Shown: positions 3,601-24,724 of the stretch, piece after piece
Position numbering within the stretch: position 1 is the first letter of the stretch
Layout: each line of letters begins with the position of its first letter
Made by a program: the position numbers and the translations under genes
Source: Escherichia coli 042
GTDB lineage: Bacteria; Pseudomonadota; Gammaproteobacteria; Enterobacterales; Enterobacteriaceae
Direction: 5' to 3' (one strand)
Assembly (NCBI RefSeq): GCF_000027125.1
Contig: NC_017626.1
DNA length: 64,000 bases
The notes under the pieces: generated by a model
Seen by the model: only the letters and a program-made list of their open reading frames with translations
Databases searched by the model: none
Told to the model about the DNA's origin: nothing

Positions 3601-4083
3601 ACGCTCAACAACGTCACGATTAACGAGAACTGTCGGGTTCTGGGAAAATTGTCCGCGAACCAGATTGAAGGCGATCTCGTTAAAACAGTGGGCAAAGCTT
3701 TCCCCCGGGACTCCCGTGCACCGGAGCGGTGGCCATCAGGAACCATTACCGTCAGGGTTTATGACGATCAGCCGTTTGACCGGCAGATTGTTATTCCGGC
3801 GGTGGCATTCAGCGGCGCTAAACATGAGAAAGAGCATACTGATATTTACTCCTCATGCCGTCTGATAGTGCGGAAAAACGGTGCTGAAATTTATAACCGT
3901 ACCGCGCTGGATAATACGCTGATTTACAGTGGTGTTATTGATATGCCTGCCGGTCACGGTCACATGACACTGGAGTTTTCGGTGTCAGCATGGCTGGTAA
4001 ATAACTGGTATCCCACAGCAAGTATCAGCGATTTGCTGGTTGTGGTGATGAAGAAAGCCACTGCAGGCATCACGATTAGCTGA
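604..4083 (+). CDS. J: Host specificity protein J (central tail fibre / tip attachment protein)
   Basis: 1159 aa ORF; N-terminus [38 protein letters not shown] matches my recollection of lambda J; size and position before lom fit. SD-like gagg upstream of ATG. Confidence 0.95.
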
Positions 4084-4100
4084 ATTTTATAACCCAGATA

Positions 4101-4128
4101 CGGGCGCCAGAAATGGCGCCTTTTTTAT
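4101..4128 (+). terminator. Rho-independent terminator after J
   Basis: ggcgcc-agaaat-ggcgcc hairpin followed by tttttt. Confidence 0.5.
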
Positions 4129-4150
4129 TGCAGAAAAGCGAGAGGTAATT

Positions 4151-4750
4151 ATGCGTAAATTATGTGCTGTTATTTTGTCCGCAGTAGTCTGGCAGGTCGC
4201 CGCTGCTACGCCAGCGAGTGCAGCAGAACATCAGTCCACGCTGAGCGCGGGGTATCTCCATGCCTCGACGAACGTTCCCGGTAGTGATGATCTGAACGGG
4301 ATTAACGTGAAATACCGTTATGAGTTTACGGACGCGCTGGGGCTGATTACGTCCTTCAGTTATGCCAATGCTGAGGATGAGCAAAAAACGCGCTACAGCG
4401 ATACCCGCTGGCATGAAGATTCCGTGCGTAACCGCTGGTTCAGCGTGATGGCGGGGCCGTCTGTACGCGTGAATGAATGGTTCAGCGCGTATGCGATGGT
4501 GGGTGTGGCTTACAGCCGTGTGTCGACTTTCTCCGGGGATTATCTCCGCGTAACTGACAACAAGGGGAAAACGCACGATGTGCTGACCGGAAGTGATGAC
4601 GGTCGCCACAGCAACACGTCTCTGGCGTGGGGGGCTGGCGTGCAGTTTAATCCGACCGAATCCGTGACCATTGACCTTGCTTATGAAGGTTCCGGTAGTG
4701 GCGACTGGCGAACGGATGCATTTATTGTTGGTATCGGATACCGTTTCTGA
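4151..4750 (+). CDS. lom: Lom/Ail/PagC-family outer membrane beta-barrel protein
   Basis: 199 aa, signal peptide ending ASA-AE, C-terminal GYRF beta-barrel signature, position immediately after J as in lambda. Confidence 0.9.
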   Translation: MRKLCAVILSAVVWQVAAATPASAAEHQSTLSAGYLHASTNVPGSDDLNGINVKYRYEFTDALGLITSFSYANAEDEQKTRYSDTRWHEDSVRNRWFSVMAGPSVRVNEWFSAYAMVGVAYSRVSTFSGDYLRVTDNKGKTHDVLTGSDDGRHSNTSLAWGAGVQFNPTESVTIDLAYEGSGSGDWRTDAFIVGIGYRF

Positions 4751-4853
4751 CAACAGACGCCGATTTATCTTCTGTAAATATTGTTATGATACGCAGGTTC
4801 ATCCACCTTATGGGGTGAACTGCGTTTGAGGAAACGTAAAGTTACACTGTCCT

Positions 4854-4888
4854 GAAGCCCGTGGCGTCACTGCTGCGGGCTTTTTTTA
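4854..4888 (+). terminator. Rho-independent terminator after lom
   Basis: aagcccg..cgggctt stem followed by ttttttt. Confidence 0.5.
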
Positions 4889-4901
4889 TTGGTGGAAAAG
4901 T

Positions 4902-7900
4902 ATGACAGTAAAAATTTCTGGCGTGCTTAAAGATGGCACAGGAAAACCAGTACAGAACTGCACCATTGTGCTGAAGGCCAGACGAACCAGCAGCACGGTG
5001 GTGGTGAACACGGTGGCCTCTGAAAATCCGGATGAAGCCGGACGTTACAGCATGGATGTTGAGCATGGTCAGTACAGCGTCACCCTGCTGGTTGAAGGTT
5101 TTCCGCCTTCACATGCCGGGACCATTACCGTCTATGAAGGTTCCAGATCAGGTACGCTGAATGATTTTCTCGGTGCCATGACGGAGGATGATGTCCGACC
5201 GGAGGCACTGCGCCGCTTTGAGCAGATGGTGGAAGAGGTGTCACGTAACGCCTCCGCGGTTGCACAGAATACGGCAGCCGCGAAAAAATCAGCCAGCGAT
5301 GCCAGTGCATCAGCCAGCGAGGCGGCAACTCATGCAACCGATGCTGCAGCCTCAGCACGTGCCGCCAGCACGTCAGCCGGACAGGCCGCGTCGTCGGCTC
5401 AGTCAGCGTCTTCCAGCGCAGGAACGGCATCGACAAAGACCCGTGAAGCAGCAAAAAGTGCTGCTGCTGCAGAGTCATCAAAAAGCGCGGCAGCTACCAG
5501 CGCCAGTGCCGCGAAAACGTCAGAAACGAATGCCGCAGCATCACAAAAATCGGCAGCCACTTCTGCATCCACAGCGACCACGAAGGCGTCAGAAGCTGCC
5601 ACCTCGGCACGGGGTGCGGCGGCCTCAAAAGAGGCAGCGAAATCTTCAGAAACGAATGCATCATCAAGTGCCAGTAGTGCAGCTTCCTCGGCAACGGCGG
5701 CAGGAAATTCCGCGAAGGCGGCAAAAACGTCCGAGACGAACGCTAAGTCTTCTGAAACAGCAGCGGGACAGAGCGCCTCAGCTGCGGCAGGTTCAAAAAC
5801 AGCGGCTGCATTATCTGCCAGTGCCGCGTCAACAAGTGCCGGGCAGGCCTCAGCCAGTGCCACCGCCGCCGGAAAATCGGCAGAAAGCGCCGCATCATCC
5901 GCTTCAACAGCCACAACGAAGGCTGGCAAAGCCACTGAGCAAGCCACTGCAGCAGCGAGGTCTGCTTCTGCAGCAAAAACCTCTGAAACAAATGCAAAGA
6001 CTTCAGCAGACAATGCTGCTTCCTCTAAGGCGGCAGCCGCATCGTCAGCCAGTTCAGCGGCGTCATCGGCATCATCTGCGTCTGCTTCAAAAGATGAGGC
6101 GACCAGACAAGCGTCAGCAGCGAAAGGTAGTGCCACGACAGCAACAACGAAAGCATCAGAGGCGGCAGGCAGTGCGACGGCTGCATCTCAGAGCAAAGTT
6201 GCTGCTGAATCCGCGGCAACGCGCGCCGAGACAGCAGCAAAACGGGCAGAGGATATTGCATCCGCCGTGGCGCTGGAGGATGCGAGCACGACGAAAAAGG
6301 GGATAGTACAGCTCAGCAGTGCAACAAACAGCACCAGTGAAAAGCTGGCGGCAACGCCAAAGGCAGTTAAAACTGTTAAAGATAGTTCAGTTCAAAAAAC
6401 TGGCGACACAATGGGAGGGCAGTTAAAAATCAGCACGATAAATGCTCTTCGAATATTCAACCAAGCCTTTGGCCTTATTTTTAGGCGTTCCGAAGATCAT
6501 CTTCATCTTATTCCGACTAATGAAGGGGAGGGGGAAAATGGAGACATCGGTTCATTAAGACCATTCTCTATAAACTTAAGATCAGGGTTGGTGTCCATCG
6601 GTAATGGACTAAAAGTTGGTGGTAGTGTTACTGGTAATTTGACCGGAAACGCAGATACTGCGACCAAGATCAAGACAGCACGTAAGATTGGGGGCGTGGC
6701 ATTTGATGGATCGGCAGATATCAACTTGCCTGGAGTCAACGCTACCGGTAATCAAAACACTACAGGTAATGCTGCGACCGCCACGAAACTTCAGGCAGCC
6801 AGAACGATTAACGGTGTGTCATTTGATGGTAGTGCAAATATCACATTGACCCCTTCAAATATTGGGGCATTGGCATTAACTGGAGGGACTCTTTCAGGTG
6901 GTTTAACTGCTGCTGGTGAGGTTATTTCAAGGTCAGCAAATGGTCTGCGTATTGCCTATGGCAACTATGGATTCTTTATCCGAAATGATGGATCAAACAC
7001 ATATTTTATGTTGACAGATTCGGGTAACAGTCTTGGTACGCACAATAGCTTAAGGCCGTTTATAATTAGTAACCATACTGGCAATGTTACAATTGCAACT
7101 AAATTAAACGCGAGTGGTGGTATCACTGGATCTTTATCGGGTAATGCAAGCACAGCAACCAAATTGCAAACTGCAAGGACAATTAACGGCGTAAAATTTG
7201 ACGGCTCGGCAAATATTGAAGCGTTTCCGCCAGGTGTTCCGCTGCCGTGGCCATCAGATACACCACCTGCAGGTTATGCAATCATGCAGGGGCAGACGTT
7301 TGATAAGGCAGCATATCCGAAACTGGCTATTGCCTATCCTTCAGGTGTTATTCCAGATATGCGCGGCTGGACAATCAAGGGCAAACCCGCCAGTGGCCGG
7401 GCCGTATTGTCTCAGGAACAGGACGGCATTAAATCGCACACCCACAGCGCCAGCGCATCCAGTACGGATTTGGGGACGAAAAACACATCGTCGTTTGATT
7501 ACGGAACCAAATCCACGAATAACACCGGGGCGCATACCCATAGTATTAGCGGGACTGCAAATAGTGCCGGTGCGCACCAACACAAGAGTTCCGGTGCATT
7601 TGGTGGCACGAACACGAGCATTTTCCCTAATGGTTATACCGCGATTTCAAATCTAAGCGCGGGGATTATGAGCACAACAAGCGGTAGTGGCCTGACTCGT
7701 AATGCAGGGAAGACATCATCAGATGGTGCTCATACCCACTCGCTGTCCGGCACTGCTGCAAGCGCAGGCGCACATGCACATACTGTCGGTATTGGTGCTC
7801 ATACGCACTCCGTTGCGATTGGCTCACATGGACACACCATCACCGTTAACGCTGCTGGTAACGCGGAAAACACCGTCAAAAACATCGCATTTAACTATAT

Positions 7901-7916
7901 TGTGAGGCTTGCATAA
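4902..7916 (+). CDS. stf: Side tail fibre protein
   Basis: 1004 aa; N-terminus [22 protein letters not shown] and C-terminus ..[18 protein letters not shown] resemble lambda Stf from memory; long Ala/Ser/Thr-rich low-complexity shaft; three tandem ~38-aa repeats (TGNxxTATKxxTARxIxGVxFDGSAxI) at about 6600-7210; cluster of His-x-His motifs near the C-terminal tip. Confidence 0.92.
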
Positions 7917-8500
7917 TGGTATTCAGAATGAGTGAACAACCACGGACCATAACAATTTATAATCTGCTGGCCGGAACTAATGAATTTATTGGTGAAGGTG
8001 ATGCATATATTCCGCCTCATACAGGTCTGCCAGCAAACAGTACCGATATTGCACCGCCAGATATTCCGGCAGGCTTCGTGGCTGTTTTCAACAGTGATGA
8101 GGCATCGTGGCATCTCGTTGAAGATCATCGGGGTAAAACGGTTTATGACGTGGCTTCCGGCGACGCGTTATTTATTTCTGAACTCGGTCCGTTACCGGAA
8201 AATGTTACCTGGTTATCGCCGGAAGGGGAGTTTCAGAAGTGGAACGGCACAGCCTGGGTGAAGGATACGGAAGCAGAAAAACTGTTCCGGATCCGGGAGG
8301 CGGAAGAAACAAAAAACAACCTGATGCAGGTAGCCAGTGAGCATATTGCGCCGCTTCAGGATGCTGCAGATCTGGAAATTGCAACGGAGGAAGAAACCTC
8401 ATTGCTGGAAGCCTGGAAAAAGTATCGGGTGTTGCTGAACCGTGTTGATACATCAACTGCACCTGATATTGAGTGGCCTACGAACCCTGTCAGGGAGTAA
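7916..8500 (+). CDS. tfa: Tail fibre assembly protein (chaperone)
   Basis: 194 aa, start overlaps stf stop; sequence [54 protein letters not shown] matches recalled lambda Tfa almost residue for residue. Confidence 0.93.
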
Positions 8501-8550
8501 TCATTGGGATTATGCCGCAGCACGTCTTAAGCAAGAACGTGCTGCGGTTG
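8340..8550 (+). repeat. Direct repeat copy A (tfa 3-prime end plus downstream hairpin)
   Basis: About 210 bp, roughly 90 percent identical by eye to 9390..9600, including the post-stop sequence taatcattgggattatgccgcag. Confidence 0.8.
8513..8548. terminator. Hairpin between convergent tfa and methyltransferase genes (candidate bidirectional terminator)
   Basis: gccgcagcacgt / acgtgctgcgg arms (about 11-12 bp) around an 11-nt loop; T-run follows on the plus strand. Confidence 0.45.
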
Positions 8551-8554
8551 GATG

Positions 8555-9223
8555 CTATTTTTTCCCTGAAGCGGAAAACATTACTACAGTACCTTGAACC
8601 TTGGTTTTAACATTCTCGAAATGCTCTGAGAGTATATGTGTTAAGCCTTCTTCGGAATCTTTTGTGTTTGAAAAGATGCCTTTCTGATTGTAAATGCGCA
8701 TCAGTTTTTGACCGAAGCTATTGTGCACAACTCCATCGCCAAGAATTGTGGCTCCGTATAGAGTTCCATCGTCAGTTAAGGCCTGCGCCGCATTGCGTAT
8801 TACACAGCTTTTTGTAGATATATTTCCAGGCAGGCAGTGAAGAAGGTAAAACATGGAAATGGAATCAAATTGACCATGTAACGCCGCGGGATAAGGTTCA
8901 AAAACATCATGGCTAATTTTATGTTTAATTTTTGATTCCCCAGCCCTTGTAGATGCCGCGTTCAGGCTAGCTTCGTTCAAATCCATTAAAGATATCAGAC
9001 TACTCTCAGGTACGTGAGTAAGGTAAAACCCAGTTCCAACACCAATATCCAGATGGTTGTTACCTAAATGTTCCAGAAAGTGTGGAAGAAGGTGTTCCTT
9101 TGTAGGACATCCCCATGCAAGCCGATTTGATACTCCCAAAACCCACCAGTCATAAAGCTTTAGGGTAAGTGGTGTGTAAATTTTAGCCCCATCATCTGTG
9201 TTTTTTTTCATTAATTTCACCAT
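8555..9223 (-). CDS. Class I SAM-dependent methyltransferase (putative), prophage cargo gene
   Basis: 222 aa ORF. Motif I LDIGVGTG, acidic post-I ISLMDLN, motif II FDSISMFYLLHCLP, motif III LTDDGTLYGATIL in canonical order. Visibly AT-rich versus neighbours. Likely true start is the second Met (MKKNTDDG, about 9211) which has a GGTGA SD-like sequence upstream. Substrate unknown. Confidence 0.65.
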   Translation of the reverse strand: MVKLMKKNTDDGAKIYTPLTLKLYDWWVLGVSNRLAWGCPTKEHLLPHFLEHLGNNHLDIGVGTGFYLTHVPESSLISLMDLNEASLNAASTRAGESKIKHKISHDVFEPYPAALHGQFDSISMFYLLHCLPGNISTKSCVIRNAAQALTDDGTLYGATILGDGVVHNSFGQKLMRIYNQKGIFSNTKDSEEGLTHILSEHFENVKTKVQGTVVMFSASGKK

Positions 9224-9279
9224 GTTATAGTTTTATTTGTGAATTAAATCAATTATGGCGATGAATTACAAGGGGTTAA

Positions 9280-9549
9280 ATGCTGCCGCAGCATAGCGAT
9301 ATTGAAATAGCCTGGTATGCTTCGATACAGCAGGAGCCGAATGGCTGGAAGACCGTCACCACACAGTTCTACATCCAGGAATTCAGTGAGTATATTGCGC
9401 CACTGCAGGATGCTGTAGATCTGGAAATCGCAACGGAGGAAGAAAGATCGTTGCTGGAGGCATGGAATAAATATCGGGTATTGTTGAATCGTGTTGATAC
9501 ATCAACTGCACCTGATATTGAGTGGCCTGCAAATCCTGTCAGGGAGTAA
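9280..9549 (+). CDS. Truncated or divergent tail fibre assembly protein homolog (tfa-prime, 89 aa)
   Basis: C-terminal 52 aa nearly identical to Tfa ([51 protein letters not shown]); N-terminus unrelated and short; good SD aagggg 5 nt before ATG. Could be a functional mini-chaperone or a remnant. Confidence 0.5.
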
Positions 9550-9600
9550 TCATTGGGATTATGCCGCAGACACGTCGTATGCAGGAACGTGCTGCGGTTA
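9390..9600 (+). repeat. Direct repeat copy B (tfa-prime 3-prime end plus downstream hairpin)
   Basis: Partner of 8340..8550; hairpin arms are degenerate in this copy. Confidence 0.8.
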
Positions 9601-10135
9601 GTTTGTGAGCTTTCGATAGTGGTTGTTATTTTTGCCCTTATTTGTTCCGGAGGCCATGGTTCAATGGTCCGTCTGCCCCCTGTGGTGATGTCAGCAAAAT
9701 CAGCCACTGCGCGAACCACAATAGCCCGGGAAGATGCTGAAGATCACCAGGTAAAGCTGTCAGCGCAGAAACTGGAAGAACTGCTCGCATCAATGGTTAA
9801 GGATGAGGTTGATCGCAATGATGGGATTTATTGACGTCAGCGAGAGCAGAAGGAAGAACTGAATAACCTGAATGATTTACGCTCAATCAGAGCGATGATG
9901 ATTGGCAGTAATTAGCGGTCAATTTCGGTTTTTTTGGCTGTGCGCTCCCCGCCCAGCATTGCGCGTCAATTAGCCCCAAAAAAACGAAAAAGTTACAATC
10001 AAGTAAAAAATTCCTTCTGCAAAACTAAAAAAGATTTCAATAAAATCAGACAGTTAAAAGCATAAAAAAAGGTACAAAAAAAACATCTCAAAGTCTTGTT
10101 TTTTGCTTCAAATACAATTGGTTATTGTGTTTTTT

Positions 10136-10263
10136 GAAACCTACCAGTCTGGTACATGGATATCGATACCACCGCCAATTATAAGCTGGGCGGTGCACAG
10201 CAACACGATAGCGTACGCCTCGATCCGTGGGTGTTTATGTTCTCAGCAGGATATCGTTTTTAA
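10136..10263 (+). pseudogene. ompW: 3-prime fragment of ompW (last ~42 codons) at the prophage-chromosome junction
   Basis: In-frame translation ..WYMDIDTTANYKLGGAQQHDSVRLDPWVFMFSAGYRF-stop matches the OmpW C-terminus as recalled; an in-frame TGA lies just upstream (about 10133) and sequence 5-prime of it is phage-like and AT-rich; yciE follows as in K-12. Confidence 0.8.
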
Positions 10264-20349: not shown

Positions 20350-22251
20350 ATGGCAGGGAAGTTTCGCTGCATTTTGCTGTTGATAGCAGGGCTGTTTGTA
20401 TCATCTCTAAGTTATGCAGAAAACACGGAGATCCCTTCTTATGAAGAAGGGATCTCGCTCTTTGATGTTGAAGCCACTCTGCAACCGGACGGGGTGCTCG
20501 ACATCAAAGAGAACATTCATTTTCAGGCGCGAAATCAGCAGATTAAGCACGGATTTTATCGTGATTTACCACGACTATGGATGCAGCCTAATGGTGACGC
20601 TGCACTGCTGAACTATCATATTGTTGGCGTCACCCGTGATGGTGTTCCTGAACCCTGGCATCTTGACTGGCATATCGGTTTAATGAGTATTGTCGTGGGC
20701 GATAAACAACGTTTCTTGCCTCAAGGTGACTATCATTATCAAATTCATTATCAGGTTAAAAATGCTTTCCTGCGTGAGGGAGATTCTGATCTGTTAATCT
20801 GGAACGTGACCGGTAACAAGTGGCCGTTTGAAATCTATAAGACCCGATTTTCTCTCCAGTTCTCTAATATTGCGGGTAATCCATTTAGCGAAATCGATCT
20901 CTTTACCGGAGAAGAGGGCGACACATATCGAAATGGCCGCATCCTTGAGGACGGAAGAATTGAATCCCGCGATCCGTTTTATCGTGAAGACTTCACGGTC
21001 CTCTACCGCTGGCCTCACGCTTTACTTAGCAATGCCCCGGCTCTACAAACGACGAATATTTTCAGCCATCTTCTTTTACCCTCCACGTCATCGTTGTTAA
21101 TTTGGTTTCCGTGTCTGTTCCTGGTTTGTGGATGGTTATATCTCTGGAAGCGCAGGCCGCAATTTACGCCGGTAGATGTGATTGAAACCGATGTCATTCC
21201 GCCAGATTACACACCCGGCATGTTACGTCTCGATGCGAAGCTGGTTTACGACGATAAAGGTTTTTGTGCCGATATCGTAAATCTGATTGTGAAAGGCAAA
21301 ATTCATCTGGAAGATCAGTATGACAAGAACCAGCAAATCCTGATTCGTGTTAATGAAGGCGCGACCAGAAATAATGCGGTATTACTGCCCGCAGAGCAGT
21401 TATTACTGGAAGCGTTATTTCGTAAAGGCGATAAGGTCGTTCTTACGGGGAGACGCAACAGAGTCTTACGCAGGGCATTTTTACGGATGCAGAAATTTTA
21501 TCTGCCGCGTAAAAAGTCTTCGTTTTACCGATCTGATGCGTTTTTGCAATGGGGCGGAATGGCAATATTGGCGGTCATTCTCTACGGTAACCTGAGTCCC
21601 GTAGGCTGGGCAGGAATGAGTCTGGTAGGCGATATGTGTATTATGATCTGCTGGCTTCTTCCTTTTTTATTTTGTTCCCTTGAGCTTTTATTTGCCCGCG
21701 ATGATGACAAGCCTTGCGTTAATCGTGTAATCATCACTTTGTTTTTACCACTGATTTGTTCAGGCATGGCTATTTACTCTCTCTACATCAATGTCGGAGA
21801 TGTATTCTTTTACTGGTATATGCCAGCGGGTTATTTTAGCGCTGTTGTCCTGACCGGTTATCTCACTGGCATGGGGTATATTTTTCTGCCAAAGTTTACC
21901 CAAACTGGGCAGCAACGTTATGCCCACGGTGAAGCTATCGTTAACTATCTTGCGCGTAAAGAGGCAGCAACACACAGTGGGCGGCGGCGGAAAGGGGAAA
22001 CACGGAAACTGGATTACGCGTTGTTAGGTTGGGCGGTCTCGGCAAACCTTGGCAGAGAATGGGCAGCACGTATCACCCCATCACTCACAGCGGCTGTTCG
22101 CGCCCCGGAAATTGCCCGTAGTGGCGTTTTATTCTCATTACAGACGCACCTGAGTTGCGGGGCCTATACCAGTTTGTTGGGGCGGAGCTATTCCGGTGGT
22201 GGTTCTGGCGCTGGTGGCGGTGCGGGTGGCGGAGGCGGTGGTGGCTGGTAA
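20350..22251 (+). CDS. yciQ: YciQ, predicted inner membrane protein (DUF2207) with Gly-rich C-terminal tail
   Basis: 633 aa; signal sequence plus several hydrophobic segments; C-terminus GGGSGAGGGAGGGGGGGW. Confidence 0.88.
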   Translation: MAGKFRCILLLIAGLFVSSLSYAENTEIPSYEEGISLFDVEATLQPDGVLDIKENIHFQARNQQIKHGFYRDLPRLWMQPNGDAALLNYHIVGVTRDGVPEPWHLDWHIGLMSIVVGDKQRFLPQGDYHYQIHYQVKNAFLREGDSDLLIWNVTGNKWPFEIYKTRFSLQFSNIAGNPFSEIDLFTGEEGDTYRNGRILEDGRIESRDPFYREDFTVLYRWPHALLSNAPALQTTNIFSHLLLPSTSSLLIWFPCLFLVCGWLYLWKRRPQFTPVDVIETDVIPPDYTPGMLRLDAKLVYDDKGFCADIVNLIVKGKIHLEDQYDKNQQILIRVNEGATRNNAVLLPAEQLLLEALFRKGDKVVLTGRRNRVLRRAFLRMQKFYLPRKKSSFYRSDAFLQWGGMAILAVILYGNLSPVGWAGMSLVGDMCIMICWLLPFLFCSLELLFARDDDKPCVNRVIITLFLPLICSGMAIYSLYINVGDVFFYWYMPAGYFSAVVLTGYLTGMGYIFLPKFTQTGQQRYAHGEAIVNYLARKEAATHSGRRRKGETRKLDYALLGWAVSANLGREWAARITPSLTAAVRAPEIARSGVLFSLQTHLSCGAYTSLLGRSYSGGGSGAGGGAGGGGGGGW

Positions 22252-22463
22252 TCAAGCTGATGTTAATCGAAACAAGCTTTAACCATAAAGATAGTGTAGT
22301 ATGTTGCGCCTCAAAGCCAGGCCAGTTAAAACGTCGAGTCGTTTACTTAAGGCCTGAAGAGTTCAAACAGACTTTACTATCAGTGAGTCAGATGTAAGTT
22401 CTGACTCACTGTTGCACAAAAGCATATCAGACGCCTGGGAAGGCGACACCAAAAGGAAGCTCT

Positions 22464-23339
22464 ATGAGCGAAAAGCTACAGAAAGTGCTGGCGCGTGCCG
22501 GCCACGGTTCTCGCCGTGAAATCGAATCTATTATTGAAGCCGGTCGTGTGAGTGTTGATGGCAAAATTGCTAAACTCGGCGATCGTGTTGAAATTACCCC
22601 TGGATTGAAAATCCGTATCGATGGTCACCTGATTTCGGTACGTGAGTCCGCTGAACAAATTTGTCGCGTTCTGGCCTATTACAAACCGGAAGGTGAGTTG
22701 TGTACCCGTAACGATCCGGAAGGGCGTCCAACGGTATTTGACCGTCTGCCAAAGCTGCGTGGCGCACGCTGGATTGCCGTAGGTCGCCTGGACGTTAACA
22801 CCTGTGGTCTGCTGCTGTTCACCACCGACGGTGAACTGGCAAACCGTTTAATGCATCCAAGCCGTGAAGTTGAACGTGAATATGCCGTGCGTGTATTTGG
22901 TCAGGTTGACGACGCGAAACTGCGTGATTTGAGTCGTGGCGTGCAGCTGGAAGATGGTCCGGCAGCTTTTAAAACCATCAAGTTCAGCGGCGGCGAAGGG
23001 ATCAACCAGTGGTACAACGTTACTCTGACCGAAGGCCGTAACCGTGAAGTTCGTCGTCTTTGGGAAGCGGTTGGTGTGCAGGTAAGCCGCTTGATCCGTG
23101 TTCGTTACGGTGATATCCCACTGCCAAAAGGTCTGCCACGCGGTGGCTGGACGGAGCTGGACCTCGCCCAGACTAACTATCTGCGCGAACTGGTGGAGCT
23201 ACCGCCAGAAACCAGCTCTAAAGTCGCTGTAGAAAAAGACCGTCGTCGTATGAAGGCGAATCAGATTCGTCGTGCGGTTAAGCGTCACAGTCAGGTGAGC
23301 GGCGGTCGTCGCTCTGGTGGACGTAATAATAACGGTTAA
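22464..23339 (+). CDS. rluB: 23S rRNA pseudouridine synthase B
   Basis: 291 aa; S4-like N-terminal domain, RsuA-family core, Arg-rich C-tail. Confidence 0.94.
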
Positions 23340-23969: not shown

Positions 23970-24724
23970 TGGGAAATTCCTGGTTTACGGCCCGGTTGGG
24001 CGTCAAAGGTCATGCCGGTTTTACGGCGGCTGTCATCACCCATCAGCCAGAGGTAGAGCGGCATGATATCAGCGGGTGTTTTAAGTTTCTGTGGATCTTC
24101 GGTCGGGAAGGCGCTGGCACGCATTGCGGTGCGCGTACCGCCTGGGTTAATACAGTTGACGCGCAGGCGCTGCTGATATTCATCGGCCAGTACCTGCATC
24201 ATCCCTTCGGTGGCAAATTTCGACGCTGCATATGCGCCCCAGTTTGCACGCCCCTGACGTCCAACGCTTGATGAAGTAAAGACCAGTGAACCCGCGTCCG
24301 ATTTGAGTAATAAAGGAAGCAGTGCCTGGGTGAGCATAAAGGTGGCATTAACGTTGACCTGCATAACGTCCTGCCAGACCTGCGGATTTTGTTCGCTCAT
24401 TGGGCAAACATCGCCGAGCAATCCGGCATTATGCAAAACACCATCCAGACGCGGATAATTAACGGCAATGCGCTGTGCCAGTTGTTGGCAATCTTCGGAC
24501 GTGCAGGTCAGCAAATCGAGAATAAACCACTGTGGCTGACGCCCTGTTTCTTCGTTGATGTGGCTGGCTACCTGACGTAATTTTTCTTCATTACGGCCCA
24601 ACAGAATCACTGTCGCACCATAGCGTGCATACGTTATCGCGGCTTCACGACCAATACCATCGCTGGCTCCTGTTACCAGGATAATGCGATCATTGAGTAA
24701 ATCTTGTTTTGGCTGGTAATGCAT
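23966..24724 (-). CDS. yciK: YciK, short-chain dehydrogenase/reductase
   Basis: 252 aa; Rossmann motif VTGASDGIG; overlaps cobA start by 4 nt. Confidence 0.93.
   Translation of the reverse strand: MHYQPKQDLLNDRIILVTGASDGIGREAAITYARYGATVILLGRNEEKLRQVASHINEETGRQPQWFILDLLTCTSEDCQQLAQRIAVNYPRLDGVLHNAGLLGDVCPMSEQNPQVWQDVMQVNVNATFMLTQALLPLLLKSDAGSLVFTSSSVGRQGRANWGAYAASKFATEGMMQVLADEYQQRLRVNCINPGGTRTAMRASAFPTEDPQKLKTPADIMPLYLWLMGDDSRRKTGMTFDAQPGRKPGISQ

Follow-up and report, generated by a model that had tools for sequence, protein, structure and literature searches.

The window analysed here is a stretch of 64,000 nucleotides from Escherichia coli 042, and the locus of interest within it forms the right-hand end of a lambdoid prophage that sits in ompW. 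A side tail fibre gene is followed by a tail fibre assembly gene (tfa), a methyltransferase gene and a remnant of a second tfa, here called tfa'. The features are as follows, with positions counted from the first letter of the window.

4902–7916, plus strand: stf, side tail fibre gene, 1004 aa; an open reading frame that PGAP annotates, in the identical locus L001, as 'prophage tail fiber N-terminal domain-containing protein'.
7916–8500, plus strand: tfa, tail fibre assembly chaperone of the lambda Tfa type, 194 aa; matches PHROG 105 'tail fiber assembly' (E 2.7e-100).
8324–8549: copy A of a direct repeat (last 59 codons of tfa, stop codon and hairpin A), from alignment, repeat search and BLAST.
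8514–8548: hairpin A, from RNA folding; separated by 13 nt from the stop codon of tfa, which precedes it, and by 6 nt from that of the methyltransferase gene.
8555–9223, minus strand: class I SAM-dependent methyltransferase of the YbcY family, 222 aa, 40.8% GC; matches Pfam Methyltransf_12/23/25/11 and PHROG 2132.
9224–9279: AT-rich spacer, 26.8% GC, from which the methyltransferase gene and the tfa' open reading frame diverge, from composition and promoter scan.
9280–9549, plus strand: tfa' open reading frame, 89 aa, with AAGGGG at 9270–9275, 4 nt before the ATG.
9373–9599: copy B of the direct repeat, from alignment; up to 9504 it matches the cassette tfa' of phages PhiR26_1, 2G7b and Turner.
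9563–9598: hairpin B, terminator-like, with a partly U-rich tail next to it, from RNA folding and terminator scan.
9646–9915, plus strand: a second remnant, a DUF4376 / tail-fibre-related pseudogene according to PGAP, with an internal stop seen in the translation.
10138–10263, plus strand: 3' fragment of ompW, from the PGAP annotation of the identical locus.

The tfa region has 94% DNA identity to lambda 21875–22608, which covers the end of orf-314, orf-194/tfa and the first hairpin. The methyltransferase is flanked by copies A and B and lies on the strand opposite to tfa. Its GC content and that of the spacer (40.8% and 26.8%) compare with 48.5–52.1% in tfa and stf (also given as 48–52%). Further to the right, an open reading frame at 9553–9834 matches PHROG 7703 and PHROG 1141 'tail fiber protein'. 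The junction between prophage and chromosome is just left of the ompW 3' fragment, which is followed by yciE/F/G and then trpA. A search of NCBIfam gave no match for Tfa, tfa' or a 93-aa open reading frame, and only noise-level ones for the methyltransferase.

The repeat of the tail-fibre chaperone gene around the methyltransferase is real. Local alignment and repeat search place copy A at 8324–8549 and copy B at 9373–9599, with 201 of 227 columns identical (88.5%), the differences being 25 mismatches and one single-base indel; BLAST gives an E value of 3e-82 (about 1e-81) and finds no third copy within the 64-kb window. A preliminary description of this DNA had put the identity at roughly 90% by eye, and the formal alignment agrees; the identity is neither far lower than this nor confined to a few codons. 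The repeat and its hairpin were also described correctly there, while the extent needs adjusting: the start lies 16 nt further left, and the final 59 codons of tfa are included, rather than about 50, together with the stop codon and the conserved hairpin. The copies are direct repeats in register, 1049–1050 nt apart, and both include the hairpin. Only two runs of perfect identity longer than 16 bp occur within the repeat, of 39 and 35 bp.

It is worth adding that Rfam family RF02111 ('IS009') matches both copies, with 225.2 bits at 8259–8457 in the copy A region, above the gathering threshold of 117, and 112.5 bits at 9303–9506 in the copy B region, just under it. The matching stretch sits within the tfa reading frame and the tfa remnant, and is coding sequence. 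The match shows a family built on tfa 3' sequence, and we would not read it as showing an RNA gene here.

The hairpins are predicted to be stable, folding of 78–79 nt segments giving −29.3 kcal/mol for hairpin A and −25 kcal/mol for hairpin B. Hairpin A is kept across eight loci, with one compensatory change of a C-G to an A-U pair, and the region of hairpin B (9563–9621) has 90% identity to lambda 24161–24219. A terminator scan flags hairpin B only, by way of an inner 5-bp stem with the tail GTTAGTTTGT; in hairpin A the T-run is 8 nt past the stem, and on the minus strand there is no U-tract. The hairpin may be a transcript-end structure.

The arrangement is one that is already known, namely tfaD-ybcY-tfaX of the DLP12 prophage in E. 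coli K-12. Window positions 8062–9526 have 97.0% identity to about 581,659–583,121 of NC_000913.3, and the gene order and orientation are as in MG1655 (b0561–b0563). All the elements of the DLP12 module are present: a tfa with its hairpin upstream, a YbcY-type methyltransferase on the opposite strand, and a truncated tfa resembling tfaX downstream. The direct repeat is there too, between the end of tfaD and tfaX. There are nevertheless differences. K-12 has a pseudogene for ybcY and a TfaX of 61 aa, whereas here the methyltransferase is intact; the K-12 repeat is 157 bp at 84% and lacks the second hairpin, whereas copy B here has a full 3' end and a hairpin; and appY and ompT come after the K-12 module, which lies at the argU site, whereas the present prophage is in ompW.

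The same block is found in several phages and in other loci, with 97.8–99.5% identity in these other contexts (PhiR26_1, 2G7b, Turner, Nissle). PhiR26_1, in which the methyltransferase is annotated as 'putative uncharacterized protein YbcY', shares window positions 7720–9504. Phage 2G7b shares 8380–9504, with a mere fragment of copy A, and Turner shares 8515–9504, the block there coming after an invertase region. At the Nissle locus the block occurs without a downstream tfa'. The upstream part of tfa' and its junction (about 9358–9373) are common to K-12, PhiR26_1, 2G7b and Turner, none of which has a hairpin at the right boundary of the block, and the tfa' of the PhiR26_1 type enters unrelated sequence past 9504. 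Other cargo also occurs in this position: sitABCD after tfa in phage SPF_0923, and a hydrolase with ompT after the module in PhiR26_1, 2G7b and Turner. In lambda the corresponding place, immediately downstream of tfa, is taken by ea47 of the b region (minus strand), with a copy of the same hairpin on either side, though the cargo is different and only the hairpin is duplicated, not the coding end of tfa. The proposal that cargo is exchanged at the tail-fibre end is thus supported by the ea47, sitABCD and hydrolase/ompT cases, and by the alleles with and without the block that are described below.

At ompW the locus exists in two forms. The filled form, with the same flank, is present in 365 genomes; filled and collapsed forms together number 379, so about 14 are collapsed. 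The collapsed form consists of an intact tfa of 585 nt (194 codons), hairpin B and the same flank. It had been predicted that recombination between the copies would excise the methyltransferase gene and fuse tfa with the tail of tfa', and related genomes do have this configuration at the same place in the chromosome, as an intact 585-nt tfa joined to the hairpin and flank of copy B. Eight collapsed alleles were read at this site (designated below by L numbers, as are the filled alleles), and they represent five haplotypes. The switch from A-type to B-type bases lies between 8440 and 8480 in seven of the eight and between 8485 and 8521 in the remaining one, and both intervals contain one of the longest identity runs of the repeat (the 39- and 35-bp runs noted above). 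The collapsed alleles and the position of their junctions in these runs bear out the idea of a recombination scar.

Two of the collapsed alleles are very close to what a deletion would produce. Over 1,135 bp, only 2 mismatches and 1 gap separate collapsed L003 from the product predicted for a deletion in filled allele L016, and 3 mismatches and 1 gap separate collapsed L004 from that predicted for filled UM146 (L019). L003 moreover has the same Tfa protein accession as filled L016 and L017 (WP_000885577.1). A search for filled partners covered two further haplotypes, the L006/13/14 type and L015. No exact filled partner of either tfa was found in 5,426 genomes, the best filled matches over 845 bp being 98.2% for the L006/13/14 type and 99.1% for L015, and a recent deletion can therefore not be claimed for these haplotypes. 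In the L004-6 type a B-type base (8431) precedes two A-type bases (8435 and 8440), so that this type is not the product of a clean single crossover. In loci of the DLP12/PhiR26_1 type the repeat is only 132 bp at 85%, and the best 60 of 379 records showed no collapsed form there.

On the basis of these observations, we consider it probable that homologous and illegitimate recombination among lambdoid phages, acting where the tail-fibre operon ends, left the repeat behind as a scar. The low-GC YbcY-type methyltransferase, a putative moron, would move as a block made up of a hairpin, the opposite-strand gene, the AT-rich promoter spacer and, usually, a truncated tfa that retains the stretch coding for the conserved C-terminal helical domain. 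This Tfa C-terminal stretch and the hairpin are conserved among otherwise different tail-fibre modules, and would therefore provide shared homology for gain and loss of the block in prophages. In the ompW prophage, the block would lie between a working tfa (copy A) and a remnant with a complete 3' end (copy B), and a crossover between A and B would restore a normal tfa of 194 codons while removing one repeat unit (1049–1050 bp) and the methyltransferase. The enzyme responsible would be the host RecA or a phage Red-type recombinase. Each event may have been a deletion or an import; L003 and L004 look like deletion products, while the other collapsed haplotypes may represent sites at which the block never arrived.

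There is experimental precedent for such recombination. It has been shown across stf/tfa between lambda and K-12 prophages; in lytic growth a divergence of 12% reduces it only about 100-fold, mainly through Red-beta (PMC3945230). The present locus resembles this relaxed homologous recombination of lambdoid phages in that stf/tfa is likewise the target of exchange, the divergence is about 12%, and the crossovers fall in short conserved stretches between modules. It differs in that the published work measured exchange between phage and prophage, whereas here the event would be a deletion between direct repeats in one prophage.

The most serious alternative is that the scar is historical and inert: the collapsed alleles would be ancestral empty sites, the cassette would have been imported once, and repeat-mediated loss would play no meaningful part. 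Several observations fit. For two collapsed haplotypes, out of five, the tfa allele was never seen in front of the methyltransferase among 5,426 genomes, and the collapsed alleles are diverse, with five haplotypes in eight genomes. Seven of the eight share the B-type bases at 8480–8485 along with the flank, as would be expected of a resident allele. Left of 9504 copy B matches the cassette tfa' of other phages, and from 9529 on its diagnostic bases are those of the tfa end and hairpin in seven of the eight collapsed alleles read, which fits an import crossover at 9490–9528. However, L003 and L004 lie within two to three mismatches and one gap of predicted deletion products, with two different junction intervals, and the PhiR26_1-type tfa' is itself truncated, so that its source must have been a form whose 3' end was complete, as that of copy B is here. 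We regard an inert scar as possible, but rather unlikely.

A second alternative is that tfa' has been retained as a working gene, expressing a free Tfa C-terminal domain from the prophage. The preliminary description had suggested such a mini-Tfa, and in one respect it was right: the 89-codon frame is open, and has a good Shine-Dalgarno sequence (the AAGGGG already noted). The protein matches PHROG 2341, a family of 88 positions, over its full length, and its first 70 or so residues are constant across variants. Tfa proteins consist of a variable fibre-binding N-domain and a conserved C-terminal helical domain (PMC9608196), and it is the latter that is present in tfa', from about residues 27–32 on. 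Matches to Tfa families start at residues 29–33, and tblastn matches to phage Tfa genes at residues 27–39, those to the genes of P2, P1 and Mu covering the C-terminal part only. Only the C-terminal 58–60 residues or so thus match Tfa, and the fibre-binding N-terminal domain of a functional Tfa is not there. No homologue of the first 26–31 residues or so was detected, nor did a large protein search find a full-length Tfa containing this N-terminal part.

MAFFT suggested that the first 35 residues come from a Tfa N-domain. This was rejected, the Smith-Waterman score being equal to the shuffle mean.

The comparison of variants is against a working tfa' gene. In common variants the C-terminal end, itself a piece of the conserved domain, has been truncated, frameshifted or swapped for unrelated sequence; those compared have lengths of 55, 61 (K-12 TfaX), 82, 101, 117 and 142 aa, the 82-aa form occurring on the largest number of contigs (998). 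In 2G7b the region is split into two overlapping open reading frames, and Nissle-type loci have the methyltransferase but no tfa'. PGAP labels 9373–9549 as a pseudogene fragment, and the constancy of the N-terminal part merely reflects the roughly 99% DNA identity of the cassette. As for expression, genomic SELEX for RpoD constitutive promoters lists a divergent site in the K-12 ybcY/tfaX spacer, which is flagged for HNS as well (PMC3946193). In the window there is a promoter-like site at 9279–9252 on the minus strand, in a region with no more such sites than shuffles have. Given the PGAP annotation and the variable 3' ends, the suggestion of a working gene is unsupported, and we consider it very improbable. 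More improbable again is a specific version of it, in which the tfa' product would be a free Tfa C-terminal trimerisation domain with a decoy-type exclusion function beside the methyltransferase; were it true, the product could co-assemble with, and poison or modulate, the chaperones of superinfecting or co-resident phages.

The repeat could also have arisen in place, by tandem duplication of the tfa 3' end through slippage or unequal crossing-over, with the methyltransferase inserted later. The copies are direct and in register, each with a hairpin, as this would require. However, they differ by 11.5%, while the cassette is 97–99.5% identical among unrelated phages. For this reason, copies A and B derive from different tfa alleles, and not from duplication in place. 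The left part of copy B moreover matches tfa' in phages whose upstream full-length tfa is different or missing, and the lambda hairpin is doubled around ea47 without any duplication of tfa coding sequence. Tandem duplication is thus very improbable.

Finally, the repeats or hairpins might be sites for a site-specific recombinase, either an invertase of the Pin/Gin/Cin type working on direct sites or an integron-like system specific for hairpins. Mu, P1 and e14 have invertase systems at their tail-fibre ends. The invertible segments (Mu G, P1 C, e14 P and p15B Min) also duplicate tfa or fibre ends at the same position, as alternative fibre ends; phage Turner has a DNA invertase between tfa and the block; and the cargo is bounded by copies of the hairpin both here and in lambda. 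But such segments use inverted repeats, a dedicated invertase (an adjacent serine invertase) and fixed gix/cix sites, whereas the present repeats are direct, the interval of the window from stf to the ompW fragment contains no recombinase gene, with no serine invertase open reading frame between 7916 and 10263, and a search of the window for gix-like sites found none at up to 3 mismatches. The junctions fall at two places within coding homology and not at a fixed site, and the right boundary of the block has no hairpin in PhiR26_1, Turner, 2G7b or K-12. A recombinase of this kind is scarcely credible.

Returning to the recombination scar, the cargo itself has the character of a moron. Juhala and Hendrix reportedly described morons as extra transcription units in lambdoid phages. 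Here the methyltransferase is present or absent among near-identical prophages, as the filled and collapsed alleles at the ompW site show, and its low GC content is unlike that of the surrounding phage genes. The opposite orientation, the promoter-like spacer, the flanking stem-loop and the position at the end of the late operon also resemble those of a moron. The cargo is unlike the usual moron in being bracketed by 227 bp of homology that permits its precise loss. As to function, PADLOC gave only a noise-level match on the cargo (mad2, E 0.003), with no sign of a known defence gene. A PDB sequence search with the methyltransferase gave weak matches to UbiG and to juvenile-hormone-acid methyltransferases (E about 1e-3); these are not diagnostic, but hint that the substrate may be a small molecule rather than DNA.

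The locus is a case of ordinary lambdoid mosaicism, which is already known; the idea that such modular exchange runs through conserved boundary or linker sequences is said to come from Susskind and Botstein and from Clark et al. It has little significance beyond being a clean illustration at nucleotide resolution. A biological question that lies close by is the role of the YbcY methyltransferase, which is very widespread: the block (8555–9372) is present in 3,843 of 5,426 complete E. coli genomes (about 71%), in up to four copies each. What the locus illustrates is that the 3' end of tfa and its hairpin would act as a shared docking homology, by which cargo is gained and lost while the chaperone gene remains undamaged.

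A lambdoid prophage integrated in ompW reaches into the window with its right end, which takes up the first 10.1 kb. The gene order, taken from the PGAP annotation of a genome 100% identical to the window, is as follows.

Left of stf: gpJ and lom
4902-7916: side tail fibre gene (stf), 1004 aa
7916-8500: tail fibre assembly chaperone gene (tfa)
8555-9223, minus strand: class I SAM-dependent methyltransferase
9373-9549: tail fibre assembly pseudogene, "missing N-terminus"
9646-9915 (ORF 9553-9834): DUF4376 pseudogene with an internal stop, matching tail-fibre-related PHROG 7703 and 1141
10138-10263: ompW 3' fragment
Right of the ompW fragment: yciE, yciF, yciG, then the trp operon

Tfa is of the lambda type (PHROG 105, E 2.7e-100), and lambda 21875-22608, which includes orf-194, has 94% DNA identity to the tfa region. 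Long open frames (372 aa and 245 aa) also occur out of frame and antisense to the Ala/Ser-rich, repetitive middle of stf (5100-6350); they were rejected as genes, being composition artefacts.

The end of tfa is present twice. Local alignment of copy A (8324-8549) with copy B (9373-9599) gives 201 identities in 227 columns (88.5%), with 25 mismatches and one 1-nt indel. A separate repeat search returned the same pair; its BLAST E value is 3e-82, and BLAST finds no third copy in the window. The preliminary description had estimated about 90% identity by eye, which proves accurate. It also located the repeat correctly apart from a left edge 16 nt too short, and recognised the tfa 3' end and hairpin, but counted about 50 codons where the alignment gives 59. 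The repeat therefore takes in the final 59 tfa codons with the stop codon, then a stem-loop at 8514-8548 (hairpin A) or 9563-9598 (hairpin B). Coding differences between the copies fall equally in synonymous and non-synonymous codons (11 nt each), with 8 amino-acid changes.

Tfa proteins have a variable N-terminal fibre-binding domain and a conserved C-terminal helical trimerisation domain (PMC9608196). The repeated portion encodes the latter, and because this domain is conserved, the stretch can serve as homology between otherwise different tail-fibre modules. When the 89-aa ORF containing copy B (tfa', 9280-9549) was used in tblastn, the Tfa genes of P2, P1, Mu and many other phages matched only from residues 27-39 onward. 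A separate observation concerns the other half of the gene. The prophage of EFF60 differs from the window by 5 mismatches in stf 4902-7400 and by none in 8167-8526, but at about 75 positions within 7400-8166, which covers the fibre tip and the N-terminal fibre-binding half of Tfa. Judged from this comparison, 7400-8166 looks like a receptor-binding module exchanged as a single unit.

It had been proposed that the repeats are a recombination scar around exchangeable cargo, and that homologous recombination could collapse them, which could be looked for in related genomes. The sequence that such a collapse should leave, 7916-8549 joined to 9600-10100, was searched against 5,426 complete E. coli genomes. 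It is covered in 379 genomes, and the filled form, with the methyltransferase between the copies, is present in 365; the difference indicates about 14 genomes with the collapsed form. Among the best 60 matches at least 12 were in a single piece, and eight of these were read (L003-L006 and L012-L015). All eight, representing five haplotypes, lie at the same ompW site; their 585-nt tfa is intact, and hairpin B, the DUF4376 remnant and the ompW fragment come after it. The proposal is thus supported by naturally occurring filled and empty alleles.

At the 25 positions that distinguish the copies, all eight collapsed alleles begin with A-type bases and change to B-type further right. The switch lies between 8440 and 8480 in seven of them, and between 8485 and the indel at 8520/8521 in the EFF60 allele (L003). 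The first interval holds a 39-bp run of perfect identity (8441-8479) and the second one of 35 bp (8486-8520), the longest two in the repeat, where no other run exceeds 16 bp; homologous recombination would be expected to leave such a pattern. Two collapsed alleles come close to a predicted deletion product. When a class-Y deletion is modelled on the filled locus L016, 2 mismatches and 1 gap in 1,135 bp separate the result from L003, which shares its Tfa protein accession with filled loci L016 and L017; for a class-X deletion modelled on UM146, the difference from L004 amounts to 3 mismatches and 1 gap. The L004-L006 types are not clean single crossovers, since one B-type base (8431) precedes two A-type bases.

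Site-specific inversion or excision is excluded: the repeats are direct, the locus has no recombinase gene, the junctions lie at two different places, and no gix-like site is found in the window at up to 3 mismatches. Duplication in place was also rejected as the source of the copies, which are 11.5% apart while the cassette (hairpin, methyltransferase, AT-rich spacer and usually tfa') is almost invariant. The same comparison indicates that the copies derive from different tfa alleles that recombination has joined. Up to 9504, copy B matches the cassette tfa' of phages PhiR26_1, 2G7b and Turner; from 9529 on, it has the bases diagnostic of the tfa ends in seven of the eight collapsed alleles, together with their hairpin and flank. 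Recombination within a 227-bp repeat of this divergence is mechanistically plausible from experiments with lambda and K-12, in which recombination between phage and prophage across stf/tfa was demonstrated, and 12% divergence lowered recombination about 100-fold in lytic growth, chiefly via Red-beta (PMC3945230).

The methyltransferase and its upstream spacer (8555-9372) occur in 3,843 of the 5,426 genomes (71%), in up to 4 copies per genome, with identity always at least 95% and in most at least 99%. In about 1,495 of the genomes searched, tfa is followed by the hairpin and methyltransferase. The GC content (methyltransferase 40.8%, spacer 26.8%, stf and tfa 48-52%) is that of a moron. The block is 97.8-99.5% identical in PhiR26_1, where the gene is annotated "putative uncharacterized protein YbcY", 2G7b and Turner, and its edges differ. 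In 2G7b it begins at window 8380, so that the upstream tfa is itself just a fragment, and in Turner, behind an invertase region, at the hairpin (8515). The right edge is 9504 in each of the three phages; there the tfa' ORF passes into unrelated sequence, with a hydrolase gene and ompT beyond. In Nissle similarity stops at 9309, and no tfa' follows.

The stem-loop after tfa is kept in 8 loci, with one compensatory C-G to A-U exchange. Lambda (NC_001416) has it twice, directly after tfa (22572-22608) and at 24161-24219, with the minus-strand gene ea47 in between. Since ea47 is bracketed by the hairpins, and window 9563-9621 shares 90% identity with the second lambda copy and its flank, this gene occupies the same slot as the methyltransferase here. 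In SPF_0923, deposited as a 'Salmonella phage', region 3798-6657 has the same tfa, hairpin and flank and, beyond them on the opposite strand, the manganese/iron transporter genes sitABCD, another cargo at this post-tfa position. From the DUF4376 remnant 3' of hairpin B it would seem that tail-fibre modules were replaced more than once, a 3' fragment staying behind each time.

Three annotations overlap these elements. The Rfam family RF02111 'IS009' (gathering threshold 117) matches at 8259-8457 (225 bits) and 9303-9506 (112.5 bits), both inside the tfa reading frame or its remnant; this 'RNA gene' family appears to have been built on tfa 3' coding sequence. CssrB, a chromosome-encoded Shigella sRNA, gives a weak partial match at 8484-8546 (32.6 bits, threshold 76), overlapping the end of tfa and hairpin A. 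The PGAP hypothetical protein WP_001309429.1 (45 aa, 8473-8610), whose ORF crosses the tfa stop, the hairpin and the methyltransferase 3' end, has probably been called in error over hairpin A.

Intramolecular deletion from a filled allele and cassette import into an empty one yield the same filled and collapsed structures, so that exchange may have run in either direction. Filled partners were sought for two further collapsed haplotypes (L015 and the L006/L013/L014 type), using tfa joined to hairpin A and the methyltransferase end. No exact partner was found in the 5,426 genomes, the best matches being 99.1% and 98.2%, and these two may have been empty from the start. Since the PhiR26_1-type tfa' is cut at 9504, its ancestor must have had a complete 3' end, as copy B has; this argues that the window-type arrangement is old rather than derived late. 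In the DLP12/PhiR26_1 setting, the repeat is just 132 bp at 85%, a crossover would leave Tfa with a C-terminus of foreign origin, and no collapsed form was seen among the best 60 records.

The tfa' ORF had been put forward as a possible mini-Tfa. It is indeed an open 89-aa frame with AAGGGG 4 nt 5' of the ATG, and it matches PHROG 2341 (88 positions) end to end; in PMC3946193 the K-12 ybcY/tfaX spacer is among the divergent RpoD promoter sites, with an HNS flag. A working gene is nevertheless very unlikely: PGAP calls the ORF a pseudogene, its ends vary, and Nissle-type loci lack it. Versions of 55, 61 (K-12 TfaX), 82, 88, 89, 101, 108, 117 and 142 aa are in the protein database, the 82-aa version being on the most contigs among those compared. 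Their first 70 or so residues are constant and the ends truncated, replaced or frameshifted, and in 2G7b the region is two overlapping ORFs. With tblastn, the first 26-31 or so residues have no homologue outside the cassette, and the first 35 resemble the Tfa N-domain no more than expected by chance. The constancy of the first part mirrors the roughly 99% identity of cassette DNA.

The cryptic prophage DLP12 of E. coli K-12 MG1655 carries the same module, as tfaD, ybcY (a pseudogene, opposite strand) and tfaX, at 97.0% identity to window 8062-9526. The arrangement is thus the already known, long-annotated DLP12-type tfa-ybcY-tfa' module, and the locus is ordinary lambdoid mosaicism. The methyltransferase has generic class I Pfam domains, weakly resembles UbiG and juvenile-hormone-acid methyltransferases, and belongs to PHROG 2132, a family with no assigned function; NCBIfam and PADLOC (defence systems) give no credible match.
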